This document shows, one piece after another, positions 381-13,898 of a stretch of 13,898 nt of DNA. The DNA comes from a virus. Position 1 is the stretch's first letter. Every line of letters begins with the position of its first letter. The position numbers and the translations under genes are program-made. The notes under the pieces are model-generated. The model was not told the DNA's origin. It was given only the letters and a program-made list of their open reading frames with translations, and searched no databases. The stretch lies in the UHGV virus genome UHGV-0274736. One strand, 5' to 3'.

Positions 381-500
381 AATCCGTTGAAGCCTGCTTT
401 TTTATACTAAGTTGGCATTATAAAAAAGCATTGCTTATCAATTTGTTGCAACTAACAGGTCACTATCAGTCAAAATAAAATCATTATTTGATTTCAATTT
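381..500. other. attL (B-O-P'): 15-bp lambda core GCTTTTTTATACTAA at 396-410, host-type B arm to the left, phage P' arm with arm-type Int/IHF sites to the right
   Basis: Core sequence read directly at 396-410; downstream GTTGGCATTATAAAAAAGCATTGCTTATCAATTTGTTGCAAC...CAGTCAAAATAAAATCATTATTTG matches the recalled lambda attP P' arm; upstream tgaagcct matches recalled attB side. Confidence 0.85.
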
Positions 501-1554
501 TGTCCCACTCCCTGCCTCTGTCATCACGATACTGTGATGCCATGGTGTCCGACTTATGCCCGAGAAGATGTTGAGCAAACTTATCGCTTATCTGCTTCTC
601 ATAGAGTCTTGCAGACAAACTGCGCAACTCGTGAAAGGTAGGCGGATCCCCTTCGAAGGAAAGACCTGATGCTTTTCGTGCGCGCATAAAATACCTTGAT
701 ACTGTGCCGGATGAAAGCGGTTCACGACGAGTAGATGCAATTATGGTTTCTCCGCCAAGAATCTCTTTGCATTTATCAAGTGTTTCCTTCATTGATATCC
801 CGAGAGCATCAACATGCAATGTTGTTGGGATGGCAATTTTTACGCCTGTTTTGCTTTGCTCGACATAAAGATATCCATCTACGATATCAGACCACTTCAT
901 TTCGCATAAATCACCAACTCGTTGCCCGGTAACAACAGCCAGTTCCATTGCAAGTCTGAGCCAACATGGTGATGATTCTGCTGCTTGATAAATTTTCAGG
1001 TATTCGTCAGCCGTAAGTCTTGATCTCCTTACCTCTGATTTTGCTGCGCGAGTGGCAGCGACAGGGTTTGTTGTTATATGGCCTTCAGCTATTGCCTCTC
1101 GGAATGCATCGCTCAGTGTTGATCTGATTAACTTGGCTGACGCCGCCTTGCCATCGTCTATGTATCCATTGAGCATTGCCGCAATTTCTTTTGTGGTGAT
1201 GTCTTCAAGTGGAGCATCAGGCAGACCCCTCCTTATTGCTTTAATTTTGCTCATGTAATTTATGAGTGTCTTCTGCTTGATTCCTCTGCTGGCCAGGATT
1301 TTTTCGTAGCGATCAAGCCATGAATGTAACGTAACAGAATTATCACTGTTGATTCTCGCTGTCAGAGGCTTGTGTTTGTGTCCTGAAAATAACTCAATGT
1401 TGGCCTGTATAGCTTCAGTGATTGCTATCCTCCTGTCTCGGCCTAATCCAAACTCTTTACCCGTCCTTGGGTCCCTGTAGCAGTAATATCCATTGTTTCT
1501 TATATAAAGATTAGGGGGTAAATCCCGGCGCTCATGACTTCGCCTTCTTCCCAT
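484..1554 (-). CDS. int: Tyrosine integrase, lambda Int type (356 aa)
   Basis: ORF-track protein MGRRRSHERRDLPPNLYIRNNGYYCYRDPRTGKEFGLGRD...HLLGHKSDTMASQYRDDRGREWDKIEIK matches recalled lambda Int almost throughout; stop abuts attL P' arm. Confidence 0.97.
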   Translation of the reverse strand: MGRRRSHERRDLPPNLYIRNNGYYCYRDPRTGKEFGLGRDRRIAITEAIQANIELFSGHKHKPLTARINSDNSVTLHSWLDRYEKILASRGIKQKTLINYMSKIKAIRRGLPDAPLEDITTKEIAAMLNGYIDDGKAASAKLIRSTLSDAFREAIAEGHITTNPVAATRAAKSEVRRSRLTADEYLKIYQAAESSPCWLRLAMELAVVTGQRVGDLCEMKWSDIVDGYLYVEQSKTGVKIAIPTTLHVDALGISMKETLDKCKEILGGETIIASTRREPLSSGTVSRYFMRARKASGLSFEGDPPTFHELRSLSARLYEKQISDKFAQHLLGHKSDTMASQYRDDRGREWDKIEIK

Positions 1555-3248: not shown

Positions 3249-3454
3249 TTGTTAATCCTCAAAACTTTATGCCCGGGCGCAAAAGCACGTGTTTTGTCTT
3301 TACTTATTCGCCACCCGTCTTTACGGGCCTCTTTTGCACAACCAGACCATGACGTACCGATATACTCACCGAAGTCTGGCACTGGATATACACCCTCCGT
3401 ACACTGGCGGCAGTCACAATAGAGATGCATGGTGTAACTTGCAGCGATAGCCAT
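3245..3454 (-). CDS. Small Cys-rich protein (69 aa), possible zinc-binding
   Basis: AAGGAG SD before ATG at 3454; motif C-D-C-x2-C plus a later Cys; translationally coupled to neighbours on both sides. Confidence 0.55.
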   Translation of the reverse strand: MAIAASYTMHLYCDCRQCTEGVYPVPDFGEYIGTSWSGCAKEARKDGWRISKDKTRAFAPGHKVLRINK

Positions 3455-3455
3455 A

Positions 3456-4163
3456 TCACTCTCCTTTGATGCGAATGCCTGCGGCGCGGATTGCAGCGAT
3501 GACTTCAGAAACTTTGTATGCCATTACCGTTTGGTAATCATCGTGAAAATCTGTTCGATGAAGCATGCTGCTACGTTCCGGGAGCGATATTTCCCGAGCA
3601 TCCAGTTCCTTAACGCGTTCCTCCAGTTCGTAGACCCTGCATTGTTCTCTATCATCAATCAGATATAACCCAAGACATTCGCTTTCTACCCAACCGCCAA
3701 AATCATGATCGTAACGCTCACATGAAAACTCACCGTCACCGTCCTTTGTTGGAATGGTGTAACTATCTAATGGGCCACCATATGTCGGCACATTTCCCAA
3801 TGTTGGATGCTCAATCCACATGAAAAATGCACGTCCGGTTATTGGGCAAATATCTGGCCGCCATTGGTTACGAACAGCCTTGGTTTCGGATAATTCTTCA
3901 GCGTGTTGTTTTACTTCCTCAAGCTCAACTCTCAGCTTCCCCACCGTTAGCGCAATATCCTCGTTCTCCTGATCGCGGCTTTTGATGTATTGCAGGTTTC
4001 TTTCCCGTTCATCCAACAATGCCAGCGCGATATCTGGCGAAAAGTGCTTCATAAAATCGTTAAGCGCATTAATTCGCTGATCGAAAGGCATTACAGGTGC
4101 TTCACCAGCAATTTTTGTTTTTTCAGCGATTTCACGAAGCTTTTGATAATCAATCTTGCTCAC
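3456..4163 (-). CDS. Ea22-like protein (235 aa)
   Basis: GTG start with AGGAGG SD; segments LLDERERNLQYIKSRDQENEDIALTVGKLRVELEE and C-terminal AAGIRIKGE resemble recalled conserved N- and C-terminal regions of lambda Ea22, with a divergent middle region. Confidence 0.5.
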   Translation of the reverse strand: MSKIDYQKLREIAEKTKIAGEAPVMPFDQRINALNDFMKHFSPDIALALLDERERNLQYIKSRDQENEDIALTVGKLRVELEEVKQHAEELSETKAVRNQWRPDICPITGRAFFMWIEHPTLGNVPTYGGPLDSYTIPTKDGDGEFSCERYDHDFGGWVESECLGLYLIDDREQCRVYELEERVKELDAREISLPERSSMLHRTDFHDDYQTVMAYKVSEVIAAIRAAGIRIKGE

Positions 4164-4898: not shown

Positions 4899-5486
4899 TC
4901 AGAAAGGAGGGTAATCGTTCTGGCTGTAACCATAATCATCTGCATGATTATGGCTTACGTTTTTAGAGCGATTGTCTTTATCTTTGAGGCTGGCAACCAT
5001 GTTGGCGATAGTTTCTGGTTGCTTGCCTTCCGCCTTTTCTTTAAGGGTTTGACCTGTTTGTGCAATAAACGGGATGCGTATTTCCATCTGGTAGCTGTCT
5101 GCGCCAGTCTTTTTGTTTGTGGTTAATACTTTCTGGAGCACTAACCCGATTTTCTTTCCATGAAATTCAGGTGCAACAAATTTACTGGCGGAAACCATAT
5201 GTTGCGTTAATTGTCCAATCCCGGCACACCCCATCATGGCGTGAACGACATTTGTGCCAAATTTGTTTTCCGTTCCGTCATTTTTCTGAACACAGACGCT
5301 AAGATATTGGATTTTACGTCCGTCGTCGGATTCGCCAGAAAACTCAATAAATTTGGCTCCTTTTTCTGATTGCTTTAGTTCTGCTTCAGTAATGGTAATG
5401 ATATGAGCGCCAGTTTCGTTAATAAAACCGCCTTGTCCTGCGGTCAGTGCTGCTTCTTCGTTATAAGTAAAAATCACGCTGATCAT
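4899..5486 (-). CDS. SSB-like recombination accessory protein, DUF669-type (195 aa)
   Basis: N-terminal pattern G-x-F/Y...ITEAELKQSEKGAKFIEF typical of DUF669 as I recall it; acidic C-terminal tail ending DDYGYSQNDYPPF resembles the SSB C-terminal DDDIPF tip; ATGA overlap with the upstream ATPase gene. Confidence 0.55.
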   Translation of the reverse strand: MISVIFTYNEEAALTAGQGGFINETGAHIITITEAELKQSEKGAKFIEFSGESDDGRKIQYLSVCVQKNDGTENKFGTNVVHAMMGCAGIGQLTQHMVSASKFVAPEFHGKKIGLVLQKVLTTNKKTGADSYQMEIRIPFIAQTGQTLKEKAEGKQPETIANMVASLKDKDNRSKNVSHNHADDYGYSQNDYPPF

Positions 5487-9088: not shown

Positions 9089-9670
9089 ATGAACAACTCA
9101 TGGTGGCAGGAACTAATGCATTTTTTCCTGCAAGGAATGACACTTAAACAGTTGATTCATATGCTAATCATCCTGATCATATTGATTATTGTTATGCCGG
9201 TAAGCGTAAAAGAATGGATAAACCTGCATAATCCAGAAATCCTTCCTCATTATTGGATGTATTACATCCTGTTGTTCTGCGTTAGCTATGTGCTTAACGG
9301 TGTTGTTAATTCCGCTTATCACGCTGTGACTGAAAGAATTGAGGTATCCGCTGCTCAGAAGCGCAAATCTAAAGAAGAAAAATATGTGCAAGATTTGTTT
9401 GATTCGTTAACTCTTGGAGAAAGAGCGTATTTGGCATTCGCTGTAGCCGCGAATAACAAGCTAAAGACAGAAAAGGGAAGCCCCGAAGCAATCTCATTGC
9501 TCGAAAAAGGGCTTCTTATTCGGATACCTTCTGCTACTGGATATCCTGAAATCGACCGTTTTGTTATCCCGGAACGCTATAGAAATGAGTGCTACATTAG
9601 GTTTGCTGGGAAGAAAGACAGTCTTATGGATGAACTTATCGCTCAGGATAAGCATGGCAAAAACAAGTAA
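9089..9670 (+). CDS. sieB: Superinfection exclusion protein B
   Basis: MNNSWWQELMHFFLQGMTLKQLIHMLIILIILIIVMPVSVKEWINLHNPEILPHYWMYYILLFC... matches recalled lambda SieB; convergent with N as in lambda. Confidence 0.85.
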   Translation: MNNSWWQELMHFFLQGMTLKQLIHMLIILIILIIVMPVSVKEWINLHNPEILPHYWMYYILLFCVSYVLNGVVNSAYHAVTERIEVSAAQKRKSKEEKYVQDLFDSLTLGERAYLAFAVAANNKLKTEKGSPEAISLLEKGLLIRIPSATGYPEIDRFVIPERYRNECYIRFAGKKDSLMDELIAQDKHGKNK

Positions 9671-9686
9671 TTAGCAAATGATTTTA

Positions 9687-10070
9687 TCATCTCGCCGTCA
9701 GTTGTTTTGATTTCCTGTAGCCTGCCGCGTAAATGGCTACGTTTGGAAGACATACACCAGTTTCTGGTTGCTTATGTCCAAACTCATTCGCGTACACAAT
9801 GGCCGCTCGCTCCAGATTGCGTCTGTATTCTTTCTGTTGCCAGATCACGTCCTGTGCCATGAACTTAATTGGCTTAGCGTCTTCTATGCGCTCAGGCGTT
9901 TCGTGAGCACCTTTAGCCTGAATCTGCGCTCTGCTTAGAGTAGGGCGGTGTAATACTTCTGAACTTATTGCTTCTTCGCGGGCCAGCACGCCGTTAGCTA
10001 ATGCCTTTGCCTTTAAACGCTCACGACGACGAGAACGTGAATTGCCTTTGAACTGAGTTCTGCGTGTCAT
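9687..10070 (-). CDS. N: N-type transcription antiterminator (127 aa) with N-terminal arginine-rich motif
   Basis: AGGAGG SD 6 nt before ATG; N-terminal GNSRSRRRERLKAKA is an arginine-rich RNA-binding motif like lambda/P22 N; sits directly downstream of a boxB-like hairpin and pL-like promoter. Could alternatively be a Nun-type factor. Confidence 0.7.
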   Translation of the reverse strand: MTRRTQFKGNSRSRRRERLKAKALANGVLAREEAISSEVLHRPTLSRAQIQAKGAHETPERIEDAKPIKFMAQDVIWQQKEYRRNLERAAIVYANEFGHKQPETGVCLPNVAIYAAGYRKSKQLTAR

Positions 10071-11623: not shown

Positions 11624-11897
11624 ACTATCACAGCGCGACGTTGATCGCGCTGAAACTGATTTACTTATCAACCTGTCAACGCTTACCCAGCGCGGTCTGG
11701 CAAAGATGATTGGCTGTCATGAATCGAAGATAAGCAGAACGGACTGGAGATTTATTGCTTCGGTCTTGTGTGCTTTCGGAATGGCATCAGACATCAGTCC
11801 GATTAGCAGGGCTTTTAAGTATGCGCTTGATGAAATCACAAAGAAAAAATCCCCGGCCGCCACCGAGGATTTTAAGCAAATTGGTATGCAATTCTGA
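11601..11897 (+). CDS. cII: CII-like transcriptional activator (98 aa)
   Basis: Central HTH region and C-terminus [18 protein letters not shown] resemble recalled lambda CII (...KKRPAATERSEQIQMEF); position after cro/nutR. Confidence 0.8.
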
Positions 11898-11929
11898 GGG
11901 AATTACTGGATCAATCCACAGGAGTAATT

Positions 11930-12076
11930 ATGACAAAACAACTCAGTCCTTACCAGGACAAAATTCACAAACACATACTACGTGATCGCTTCCTGTCCAG
12001 CTTCAAGCAGCCTGGTCGATTCCGGTCTGAGTTGGAAAAAGTGAAGCTGATGCAGAAGGAGAAAGGTCATGAGTAA
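11930..12076 (+). CDS. Small hypothetical protein (48 aa) between cII and O
   Basis: AGGAG SD 6 nt before ATG at 11930; stop overlaps the O start by 8 nt; below the length cut-off of the ORF track. No recognised family. Confidence 0.4.
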
Positions 12077-12929
12077 TATTGCAACCGTAACACATTTAAG
12101 GCCTTCACAACGGCCTGTGGAGCGTCGTGTGGCAGAAGTTGAAGATGGTTATACCCGTCTTGCAAATGCCCTGTATGAAGAGCTTATCGGCGCAGATTTA
12201 ACGAAAAATCAGAGCAAGGTTGCCCACGCCATATGCCGTAAAACATACGGCTACGGTAAAAAGATGGATCGCATCTCTGATAGTCAGTTAGCTCAAATTA
12301 CCAGGCTGCCAAGACAGAAGGTAAACAAGGCCAAGAATGAGCTTATCGCGATGAAGGTTATCCTTCGCGAAGGCCAGCAAATCGGGCCTAACAAGAACAT
12401 CGAGGAATGGCAAATCGAAGGGTGTCACTACTCTGGTGATAATGTCACTGCATTGGTGACAAAAAGTGTCACCAAAACGGTGACAGCGCTGTCACCAAAA
12501 CAGGGACACACAAAAGAAACTATTACAAAAGAAAAAAGAAATAATAAAAACACTATGTCCGAAAGTGTTCGGACGGAGTGTGAAAAATCACCTGACCGTC
12601 ACGAAGAAACCGACAAGGCATTCGAGGAAATATTCTGGTGTGCAGGCATGCGGAAAGCCGGGAAGAAAAACGCAGCTTCGGCATTCAGAACACAGTTCAG
12701 GGAATGGCGTAAAACTACCAGGGGTACGGCAAGCGAGTTTGCCACGATGCTGGCAGAAGACATCGCATGCAGGAATGGTAAGCAGTTCGGATTCGACAGG
12801 TTGTTACCATCGAGCTACCTGAACGGTCAACGCTGGAACGACGAGAAGCCAGAAACTATTCAACCACAATCCAAACCATCATCCGCAATCACCGTATCGA
12901 AAACTGGCTACGTGTTTTTCGACAGGTGA
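12069..12929 (+). CDS. O: Replication initiator, lambda O-like N-terminal domain with a non-lambda C-terminal domain (286 aa)
   Basis: N-terminal segment [73 protein letters not shown]...GPNKNIEEW parallels recalled lambda O; iterons lie inside the gene. Confidence 0.8.
12421..12575. repeat. Replication origin candidate: iterons built on GGTGACA/TGTCACC inverted half-sites, adjacent AT-rich block, then palindrome GTCCGAA-AGTG-TTCGGAC
   Basis: GGTGACAAAAAGTGTCACC and GGTGACAGCGCTGTCACC, each followed by AAAAC, plus degenerate copies upstream; A-rich tract 12505-12550; 7-bp-arm palindrome at 12557-12574. Confidence 0.6.
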
Positions 12930-12932
12930 ACC

Positions 12933-13040
12933 ATGAAATCAAAAATCAAATCGCTACTGGTCGCTGGTTATAACCACGGCTGGTTAAGTATTTCGTTTGT
13001 CGATTTCTGGTTTAAAAATCTCAATCTGAGGGAATCATGA
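12933..13040 (+). CDS. Small hypothetical ORF (35 aa) translationally coupled between O and the primase
   Basis: ATG 4 nt after O stop with AGGTGA upstream; its TGA overlaps the primase ATG (ATGA); hydrophobic/aromatic-rich; could be non-coding. Confidence 0.3.
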   Translation: MKSKIKSLLVAGYNHGWLSISFVDFWFKNLNLRES

Positions 13041-13898
13041 CGCCAAGTGAACTCAGCGACCTGCTTTGGGCGCAGGTTGACAGGGTGGCTCCGCACCTGT
13101 TGCCAAACGGCAAGAAAGAGGGGCATGAGTGGGTTGCCGGTAACGTCAACGGTGACAAGGGAAACAGCCTTAAGGTCAACCTTAGCGGCAAGAAAAAATG
13201 GGCTGATTTCGCTGAGGGAGACGGCGGTGACATGCTTGATTTGTGGATGGCATGTCGTGGAATTAACCTGCATCAGGCGATGCAGGAAGCGAAAGCATTT
13301 CTCGGAATCAAGGATGACGATCACCATTTCGATGCCAAACGTGAGAAGAAATTCTCCAGACCTGATCGCAAGAAGATCGCCCGCTACGTTACCAGAACAG
13401 AATCCCATCTTGAGTACCTGCAATCGCGTGGCATATCGCCAGAAATCGTAAAGCGCTACGAGGTTGTCAGCGGCAAGGTGTGGAATGGAGAGCGGGAACT
13501 GGATGCTCTGGTGATTCCGTACAAACGCGATGGTGAGTTGTTGCAGGTAAAGCGAATCAGCACTGAGCGCCCGGACGGGAAGAAAGTCATTATGGCAGAA
13601 GGTGATTGCGAACCTTGTCTGTTCGGATGGCAGGCTCTGGACGCTGGCGTGAGGGCGGTTGTACTTTGCGAAGGCGAAATTGATTGTATGAGCTATGCGC
13701 AATACGGCATCTCGGCGTTATCCGTGCCGTTTGGTGGCGGGAAAGGCGCTAAGCAACAGTGGATTGAGTTTGAGTATCACAACCTCGACAGGTTTGAGGA
13801 AATATTCATCTCGATGGATGTTGATGATGTTGGTCGTGAAGCCGCAAGGGAAATCGCAAGCCGACTCGGTGAACATCGTTGCCGTCTTGTTACTCTGC
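13037..13898 (+). CDS. Toprim-domain DNA primase (probably a primase-helicase), N-terminal 287 codons; continues past window end
   Basis: Frame open from ATG at 13037 to the window edge; Toprim-like motifs VVLCEGEIDCMSYAQYGISALSVPFGGG and FISMDVDDVGREAA; sits where lambda has P. Not in the ORF track because it has no stop in the window. Confidence 0.75.
   Translation, partial: MTPSELSDLLWAQVDRVAPHLLPNGKKEGHEWVAGNVNGDKGNSLKVNLSGKKKWADFAEGDGGDMLDLWMACRGINLHQAMQEAKAFLGIKDDDHHFDAKREKKFSRPDRKKIARYVTRTESHLEYLQSRGISPEIVKRYEVVSGKVWNGERELDALVIPYKRDGELLQVKRISTERPDGKKVIMAEGDCEPCLFGWQALDAGVRAVVLCEGEIDCMSYAQYGISALSVPFGGGKGAKQQWIEFEYHNLDRFEEIFISMDVDDVGREAAREIASRLGEHRCRLVTL

Follow-up and report, generated by a model that had tools for sequence, protein, structure and literature searches.

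A lambda-type initiator and in-gene origin beside a predicted T7 gp4-type primase-helicase in a lambdoid replication module

How is replication begun at a lambda-type origin when the initiator gene O is followed by a gene for a Toprim protein in the place of the DnaB loader P? This question is raised by the right-hand end of a 13,898-nt stretch of viral DNA (UHGV-0274736; the whole stretch is called the window below), which, judged from sequence, is very probably the early-right replication module of a lambdoid prophage of the P22-like/ES18 type. We found that the module is made up, by homology, of a lambda-type O with an origin inside its gene, a 35-aa ORF and a predicted T7 gp4-type primase-helicase where lambda has P. 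Its features are as follows, with the strand given for coding features.

11930-12076, plus strand: 48-aa DUF2740 ORF, homologue of ES18 gp58 (Pfam DUF2740, E = 3.3e-28)
12069-12929, plus strand: O-type replication initiator, 286 aa (Phage_rep_O, E = 1.2e-37; TIGR01610, E = 1.7e-30)
12126-12410, plus strand: origin-binding N-terminal domain of O, aa 20-114 (Pfam and NCBIfam domain limits)
12423-12508: four 19-bp dyad-symmetric iterons, TGTCAC-N7-GTGACA (pattern search and shuffles)
12509-12549: A-rich block, 41 bp (71% A on the plus strand, 83% A+T)
12537-12929, plus strand: non-lambda C-terminal domain of O, aa 157-286 (phrog_33384, E = 1.7e-88)
12550-12581: imperfect palindrome with 14-nt arms, 86% complementary
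12933-13040, plus strand: 35-aa ORF, homologue of ES18 gp60 (phrog_21848, E = 4.4e-26)
13037-13898, plus strand: primase-helicase, first 287 codons of 626 aa (Toprim_2; phrog_239 primase/helicase, E = 2.1e-73)

Gene layout and the origin inside O

The 48-aa ORF and the start of O share 8 nt, and in alignment the ribosome-binding site and ATG of this ORF fall where lambda O begins. The 35-aa ORF begins 3 nt past the O stop codon, and its own stop overlaps the primase-helicase start in an ATGA at 13037, from which the frame is open for 287 codons up to the window end, where the gene is cut. In the ORF list and in the Pfam and PHROG searches, O is followed by the 35-aa ORF and then by the gene for the Toprim protein, and a gene for a P-type DnaB loader is absent next to O. 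The original prediction had placed a 48-aa ORF ahead of O with an 8-nt overlap and, instead of P, a Toprim primase reached through a coupled 35-aa ORF; we find the former at 11930-12076 against an O start at 12069, and the latter is borne out by the Toprim_2 and phrog_239 matches together with the ATGA overlap. The order of DUF2740 ORF, O with internal origin, 35-aa ORF and primase-helicase, 3' of cro-cII, is that of ES18 gp57-gp61 with its rep_origin, and the prophage has an SSB gene of its own. A tRNA search of the window found none, and a promoter scan gave no more sites than shuffled sequence. Rfam models gave zero matches, either across the entire window with the gathering threshold or near cII-O with E <= 1, leaving an oop-like RNA there without model support.

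Next, we examined the origin. The pattern TGTCAC-N7-GTGACA, with at most two mismatches, occurs six times in the window against 0.48 expected, a count reached in 0 of 200 shuffled windows, and four of the matches lie within 86 bp, starting at 12423, 12443, 12467 and 12490 with start-to-start spacings of 20, 24 and 23. These iterons code for the linker between the two domains of O. They are followed by the A-rich block, which is presumed to be the unwinding element, and by the palindrome, whose perfect core has 7-bp arms (GTCCGAA-agtg-TTCGGAC) at 12557-12574. An origin recognisable within O by iterons, an A-rich block and a 7-bp-arm palindrome had been predicted, and all three elements lie where they had been placed. 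When set against ori-lambda, the columns are collinear across iterons 1-4 (the annotated lambda iterons), but the iteron sequence is different. Overall, the locus resembles lambda in the N-terminal domain of O, the in-gene origin, the four 19-bp dyad iterons, a near-identical A-rich block and the palindrome that then follows, whereas it differs in iteron sequence, in the C-terminal domain of O and in the palindrome itself; additionally, P is replaced by the 35-aa ORF and the primase-helicase, and the 48-aa ORF is inserted ahead of O.

The initiator and its neighbours

The two halves of O have different relatives. Residues 20-114 match Phage_rep_O (PF04492) at 128.8 bits against a cut-off of 28.7, and TIGR01610 (phage_O_Nterm) matches O at 105.3 bits against a cut-off of 45.5, while in BLASTP aa 1-157 align with aa 1-155 of lambda O at 49% identity (E = 1e-42). 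Beyond aa 157, the same comparison gave nothing significant that would indicate homology to the P-binding C-terminus of lambda O. The O-like PHROG profiles cover only aa 1 to about 175, whereas the match for the C-terminus is phrog_33384. When the C-terminus was searched against Pfam, NCBIfam and the sequences in the PDB, no family and no solved relative came up, and a large protein database yielded mostly truncated proteins and little diversity for this domain. The C-terminus ends in a strongly conserved 15-letter tail. The AlphaFold model of O, built on a 17-sequence alignment, was too poor for a fold search (mean pLDDT 51, pTM 0.34), with a helical/winged-helix N-terminal region at only moderate confidence. 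A lambda-like N-terminal domain joined to a different C-terminal domain, as had been proposed for O, thus agrees with the PF04492 and TIGR01610 matches and with the loss of lambda similarity past aa 157.

The 35-aa ORF shows the marks of a conserved coding sequence in length and substitution pattern, as its 35 codons are kept exactly in three diverged variants (25/35 and 17/35 identical) and the closest informative pair has a pN/pS of 0.37. The sampled DNA variants of the protein type found in the window carry synonymous changes only, with stop codons in the other frames.

Upon examining the primase-helicase, we find that the Toprim domain starts at about aa 207 (13655 onward), with a Pfam Toprim_2 match at aa 209-283 of the fragment (E = 9e-10). 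Its acidic residues within the window, E212 in EGEID and D261 and D263 in DVDD, align with EGEID and DMDE of T7, and all 34 relatives compared, the most distant at 38% identity, keep them unchanged; a third acidic motif, KDINE, lies just past the window end in full-length copies. Complete copies, about 99% identical over this part of the window (L003), are 626 aa long, and the ES18 protein is 94% identical. The helicase domain is read from these near-identical copies, as the window ends before it: AAA_25/DnaB_C-like matches cover aa 355-594, AAA_25 at 28 bits (cut-off 27) and DnaB_C at 23.9 bits, which is under its cut-off of 27. The 626-aa copies align with T7 gp4 (E = 2.7e-23), the helicase alignment reaching aa 539 and including the Walker A motif GHGKT, and with Twinkle (E = 6.5e-14). 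We assign the protein to the T7 gp4/Twinkle type, with predicted Toprim primase and SF4 hexameric-helicase domains. The earlier suggestion of a phage that brings its own primase and possibly a helicase is therefore supported on both counts, by the Toprim catalytic residues E212, D261 and D263 and by the C-terminal helicase region for which a domain search of the full protein had been proposed.

The model of the fragment is of high quality (pLDDT 91), and Foldseek matched it to the zinc-binding and RNA-polymerase domains of Aquifex DnaG (2au3), to Twinkle, to the T7 gp4 primase fragment (1nui) and to the B. stearothermophilus zinc-binding domain 1d0q. The protein thus shares with T7 gp4 and Twinkle a zinc-binding-domain (ZBD) fold, a Toprim RNA-polymerase domain and an SF4 RecA-type helicase domain. 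However, the ZBD-like fold, at about aa 23-90 (13103-13306), is without zinc ligands: among aa 1-100 the sole cysteine is C73, and histidines 20, 30, 79, 96 and 97 are off the knuckle positions. T7 gp4 has these ligands, whereas the protein in the window lacks them, like metazoan Twinkle. The zinc-binding domain of T7 gp4 is needed for template-directed priming, and since the fold here has no Cys/His ligands, the predicted primase activity is not assured.

The Toprim domain could accordingly be degenerate and non-priming, as in metazoan Twinkle, leaving the protein a helicase only and the primers to host DnaG or another source. We consider this unlikely. It would fit with the absence of Cys/His zinc ligands from the N-terminal domain in all 34 family members compared, and with a model that fits human Twinkle about as well as T7 gp4. 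Human Twinkle, however, has lost the Toprim acidic residues, which the protein in the window keeps, and the invariance of E212, D261, D263 and many nearby positions down to 38% identity points to selection on catalysis. Furthermore, DnaG comes through DnaB, and the helicase here is not DnaB.

Distribution and mosaicism of the module

The module is already known, having been annotated since the ES18 genome record, and by sequence matches it is widespread. Across the entire region, the DNA of mEp043, Sf101 and vB_EcoP-720R6 is 98.9% identical to that of the window, with mEp043 and Sf101 showing no meaningful difference from the window. SEN22 is 96% identical to the module and ES18 about 92% identical over a shared 72%; to the right of the start of the fourth iteron, identity is about 92% for both ES18 and epsilon34. 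ES18 has the same order of DUF2740 ORF, O with origin, 35-aa ORF and 626-aa primase-helicase, as do epsilon34, mEp043, Sf101, SEN22 and 720R6; gp58-gp61, the origin and the primase/helicase are labelled in ES18, a comparison that rests on the GenBank annotation. The module has been described for epsilon34 (genes 49-52) (PMC2629481) and for P22-like typing phages (PMC10307801). Among complete E. coli genomes, at least 170 have the module in full, and 940 of 5426 contain matches to parts of it. It is also carried by Stx2-converting phages, in which the primase-helicase is sometimes mislabelled "P". In the literature that could be searched, we found no experiment or biochemical study on the module.

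We regard it as very improbable that the module in this genome is the non-functional piece of a decayed prophage. The window is mosaic and intact in no complete E. coli genome, the best match covering 57%, and the primase-helicase is not visible in full, as the window ends within it; these points would suit a remnant. On the other hand, every ORF of the module is unbroken as far as the window reaches and has a 99% identical counterpart in plaque-forming phages; integrase, repressor, cro and cII are likewise intact.

When comparing the relatives, we observe the C-terminal domain of O (91-100% identical) in company with both the 35-aa ORF and the primase-helicase, and this set follows no fewer than four N-termini that are diverged from one another or unrelated, namely the window type, the lambda type of ES18, the HTH_36 type of Stx2 phages and the Fraca type. 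ES18, for instance, has its own lambda-type O N-terminus and iterons of lambda sequence, in contrast to the TGTCAC-N7-GTGACA type of the window. Conversely, PhiR12_1 carries the N-terminus and iterons of the window at 99.8% identity, joined to a lambda-type C-terminus and then P. Similarity to PhiR12_1, ES18 and the Stx2-phage type breaks at about 12490-12550, by which the A-rich block is identified as the recombination joint between the module halves. The palindrome shows 93% identity to ES18, against about 27-30% to lambda and PhiR12_1; on these identities, it is inherited with the half that holds the O C-terminal domain and the primase-helicase, not with the iterons.

The full C-terminal domain with its tail adjoins the primase-helicase at every locus examined in our sample of enterobacterial phages and viral contigs, and this co-inheritance suggests that the C-terminal half of O may be specific for its primase-helicase partner. 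The trio of C-terminal domain, 35-aa ORF and primase-helicase was rejected as universal: distant primase-helicase relatives (43-47% identical) have a DUF1376 protein upstream, no 35-aa ORF and no detectable similarity to the O C-terminal domain.

Additionally, the C-terminal core (aa ~170-260) occurs in Vibrio phage initiators (PVA1 and the D59 group) without an adjacent primase-helicase, so that the domain may bind something more general. Its target might be a factor of the host, such as DnaB, or DNA, such as the unwound strand, with the primase-helicase joining independently or only later, in rolling-circle replication, an arrangement that we find quite unlikely. The Vibrio initiators would be consistent with it, as would the 34 of 314 lambdoid phages that have an O homologue only, without a helicase or loader (Genome Research, PMC12315714). 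The similarity of the Vibrio initiators to the C-terminal domain is nevertheless partial, with about 40-44% identity over a portion of it, and recruitment of the primase-helicase is favoured by the full domain and tail beside it in all sampled enterobacterial loci, behind four N-termini, and by the replacement of the domain with a lambda-type C-terminus where P is present.

A proposed route of initiation and related systems

In the mechanism that we propose, O made from the rightward early transcript would bind the iterons through its N-terminal domain and distort the neighbouring A-rich block, as in ori-lambda. Recruitment of the phage primase-helicase would then fall to the non-lambda C-terminal domain, perhaps together with the palindrome and the 35-aa peptide, where in lambda the P-DnaB complex is recruited. 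The gp4-like ring would load itself, unwind the DNA and make primers, and initiation would depend on DNA polymerase III of the host but could do without its DnaB, DnaC and DnaG. We put forward only tentatively the fuller reading, in which the C-terminal domain, the palindrome and the coupled 35-aa peptide would form a dedicated loader of a zinc-less gp4-like primase-helicase at a lambda-type origin, with initiation independent of P, DnaB, DnaC and DnaG and with template recognition that dispenses with a zinc finger.

Other known systems share parts of this arrangement. T7 has transcription-primed origins and its own polymerase; the protein in the window, by contrast, sits in the context of a theta-type, initiator-dependent lambdoid origin without a phage DNA polymerase. 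P22, with genes 18 and 12, is similar in having an O-like initiator and a phage-encoded replicative helicase with no DnaB loader, but that helicase is DnaB-like, without a primase domain and not homologous to the protein here (PMC10307801). Among Stx phages, the Eru1 type (TL-2011c: SF2 helicase, Toprim protein and DUF1367 protein) likewise has a non-O/P replication region with a Toprim protein; it is a different module, with no O homologue, a separate SF2 helicase and a Toprim protein of only 323 aa (PMC8044961). The Stx-phage replication types Eru1-3 were rejected as the class of this module, as an O homologue with a fused primase-helicase after it is absent from all of them (PMC8044961).

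Overall, the locus is a clean case of domain-level mosaicism in lambdoid replication modules, in which origin specificity, carried by the iterons and the O N-terminus, and helicase-system specificity, carried by the palindrome, the O C-terminus and its partners, appear to recombine at a shared A-rich block. Independence from host DnaB, DnaC and DnaG, if shown, would be relevant to blocking the replication of Stx phages.

Gene order and identity in the replication module

The replication module comprises four consecutive plus-strand genes, laid out as in the original prediction, with a 48-aa ORF overlapping the initiator gene O and a coupled 35-aa ORF, all of which were recovered by ORF calling. 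The Toprim ORF starts on the stop codon of the 35-aa ORF (ATGA).

Features of the replication module and its origin
11930-12076, plus strand: 48-aa ORF, Pfam DUF2740; 8-nt overlap with the start of O
12069-12929, plus strand: O, 286 aa; Pfam Phage_rep_O, aa 20-114, E 1.2e-37
starts 12423, 12443, 12467, 12490: four 19-bp iterons, TGTCAC-N7-GTGACA, with internal dyad symmetry
12509-12549: A-rich block, 41 bp, 71% A
12550-12581: imperfect palindrome, perfect core GTCCGAA-agtg-TTCGGAC
12933-13040, plus strand: 35-aa ORF, starting 3 nt past the O stop; own family phrog_21848, E 4.4e-26
start 13037, plus strand: primase-helicase N-terminal part, 287 codons, then the window end; Pfam Toprim_2; phrog_239

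We found that O aligns with lambda O at 49% identity over aa 1-157 (BLASTP, E 1e-42) with no match beyond aa 157, and that in PHROGs the O-like profiles reach only from aa 1 to ~175, while aa 157-286 match phrog_33384. This bears out the predicted lambda-like N-terminus joined to a different C-terminal domain. For the C-terminal 130 residues, neither Pfam nor NCBIfam gives a family and no relative has a solved structure; the structure model of O was too low in quality for use. The last 15 residues (aa 272-286, window 12882-12926) are almost invariant even where the preceding 20 vary, and are therefore a candidate docking motif.

The iterons, A-rich block and 7-bp-arm palindrome that had been placed inside O were all found there, the last being the perfect core within 12550-12581, and the origin encodes the O linker (aa 119-171). 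Allowing up to two mismatches, the iteron pattern has six matches in the window against 0.48 expected, a count reached in none of 200 shuffles; four of the six lie within 86 bp. Upon alignment with ori-lambda, each of the four iterons coincides with one of the four annotated in lambda and the A-rich blocks hardly differ, whereas the iteron sequence and the palindrome are unlike those of lambda.

The 287-codon fragment belongs to the DNA primase/helicase family phrog_239 (E 2.1e-73). Full-length copies, read from ~99% identical E. coli chromosome copies and ES18 gp61, encode 626 aa with Toprim_2 and AAA_25/DnaB_C-like matches, so the C-terminal helicase suspected beyond the window exists; they match T7 gp4 (E 2.7e-23, aa 192-539) and Twinkle (E 6.5e-14). 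The AlphaFold model of the fragment is confident (pLDDT 91); structurally it most resembles Aquifex DnaG (zinc-binding plus RNA-polymerase domains), human Twinkle and the primase fragment of T7 gp4. Since E212 (EGEID) and D261/D263 (DVDD) align with the T7 residues and are invariant across 34 relatives, down to 38% identity, the assignment as a Toprim primase stands. The reading of the module as a whole is supported. A zinc-ribbon fold of the DnaG/gp4 type at primase aa ~23-90 (window 13103-13306) is common to T7 gp4 and this family, but zinc Cys/His ligands are present in none of the 34 aligned family members, which prompts the question of whether and how the primase-helicase recognises priming sites.

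In Stx2 phage records HM208303 (vB_EcoP_24B) and EU311208 (Min27) this gene is labelled 'P' or 'putative replication protein P'; the protein is unrelated to lambda P. In vB_EcoP-720R6 (ON470605, locus L002 5136-7035) it is split into two CDS, suggesting a frameshift or sequencing error.

Known copies and prophage context

The module is a common lambdoid replication module that has been annotated before. Over its 2 kb, phages vB_EcoP-720R6, mEp043 and Sf101 share 98.9% identity with it and SEN22 shares 96%; to the right, starting at the fourth iteron, identity is ~92% with ES18 and epsilon34 and 96-98% with several Stx2 phages. In the ES18 record, gp59 is described as lambda-O-like with a rep_origin "similar to lambda ori", gp60 has 36 codons including the stop, and gp61 is entered as a "putative primase/helicase; similar to phage T7 gene 4". 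Matches occur in 940 of the 5426 complete E. coli genomes; in 170 genomes they cover 80% or more of the region.

Upstream lie cII, cro and a LexA-type repressor (Pfam), and to their left the following genes.

Genes left of the repressor region
484-1554, minus strand: integrase
4899-5486, minus strand: phage SSB
5483-6163, minus strand: Sak4-like annealing protein
9089-9670, plus strand: SieB-type superinfection-exclusion gene
9687-10070, minus strand: N-like antiterminator

This gene content identifies the window as a lambdoid prophage's left arm plus its early-right region. The window is not present in full in any complete E. coli genome, the best coverage being 57%, so known modules are combined here in a new mosaic. 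Between the cII stop codon and ATG 11930, positions 11890-11935 align with the lambda interval from cII stop to O start; the 48-aa DUF2740 ORF therefore uses lambda's O translation start. The 'tail protein' label that its homologues carry in RefSeq phage records and PHROGs (phrog_1913) has very likely been propagated in error, because the ORF lies between cII and O in the early-right operon. A strong minus-strand terminator-like hairpin with a T-run (11846-11873, inside the cII 3' end) sits where the lambda oop antisense RNA terminates; Rfam searches of the window and of the cII-O region matched no family.

Mosaicism of the initiator and the 35-aa ORF

Across 63 compared loci, 60 of which were IMG/VR loci with a primase-helicase at least 99% identical, the C-terminal 130 residues of the initiator keep 91-100% identity to those in the window; the one exception is the more distant phage Fraca (47%). 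The N-terminal 150 residues are of the window type, the lambda type (ES18, 47%) or an unrelated HTH_36 type (Stx2-phage type, 18-21%). Fraca has a further, DnaD-like-loader-type N-terminus; its C-terminal domain is 55% identical and is accompanied by a 35-aa ORF that lacks annotation and by a primase-helicase of 62% identity. Conversely, in PhiR12_1 an N-terminal half and iterons 99.8% identical to those of the window are followed by a lambda-type C-terminus, P and ren. By sliding identity, every joint falls at ~12490-12550, where the fourth iteron and the A-rich block lie. The palindrome belongs with the C-terminal and helicase half, being 93% identical in ES18 versus ~30% in lambda and PhiR12_1.

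The 35-aa ORF most likely encodes a real small protein. It has exactly 35 codons in three diverged versions (25/35 and 17/35 residues identical to the window's), its N-terminal half is conserved (MK..[IL]K.LL[VI]AGYN.G.L), and stop codons interrupt the other frames. The closest informative pair gives pN/pS = 0.37, and every DNA variant sampled for the window's protein type differs by synonymous changes only. A second version, MKSRIKSLLIAGYNHGWLSSAFVEFWFNRLDLRSA, with 24 differences in 105 nt, occurs in four loci (L009, L057 and L076 at ~3394-3501; L063 at ~445). The O sequence upstream is identical and the primase-helicase downstream at least 99% identical: the micro-ORF by itself forms a very small mosaic cassette. 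In two viral contigs (L058, L071; 3010-3504), an inserted 164-aa ORF, by eye a candidate HNH/NUMOD-type homing endonuclease, occupies the exact junction of the 35-aa ORF and the primase-helicase gene and alters the first primase codons.

Proposed mechanism and division of specificity

No experimental work on the module was found in the literature searched. From lambda biology and co-inheritance, O would bind the iterons and open the A-rich block; its C-terminal domain, perhaps with the 35-aa peptide, would bring in the phage primase-helicase, which may self-load like gp4 and prime synthesis by host polymerase III. Host DnaB, DnaC and DnaG may then be dispensable.

Two groups of loci limit the case for the proposed recruitment by the O C-terminus. 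The core of this domain (O aa ~170-260) also occurs, at ~40-44% identity, in Vibrio phage initiators with HTH_36 N-termini (PVA1, L007 3096-3998; D59, L008 3129-3923), which are followed by small proteins (phrog_25641/32663) with no primase-helicase or known loader next to them. Additionally, for more distant primase-helicase relatives the gene immediately upstream encodes a DUF1376 protein; the small ORF is missing there and nothing resembles the O C-terminus.

Finally, from the joint positions, the co-variation of the palindrome and the swapped N- and C-termini, we infer that origin specificity would be set by the left half of the module and helicase-system specificity by the right half.
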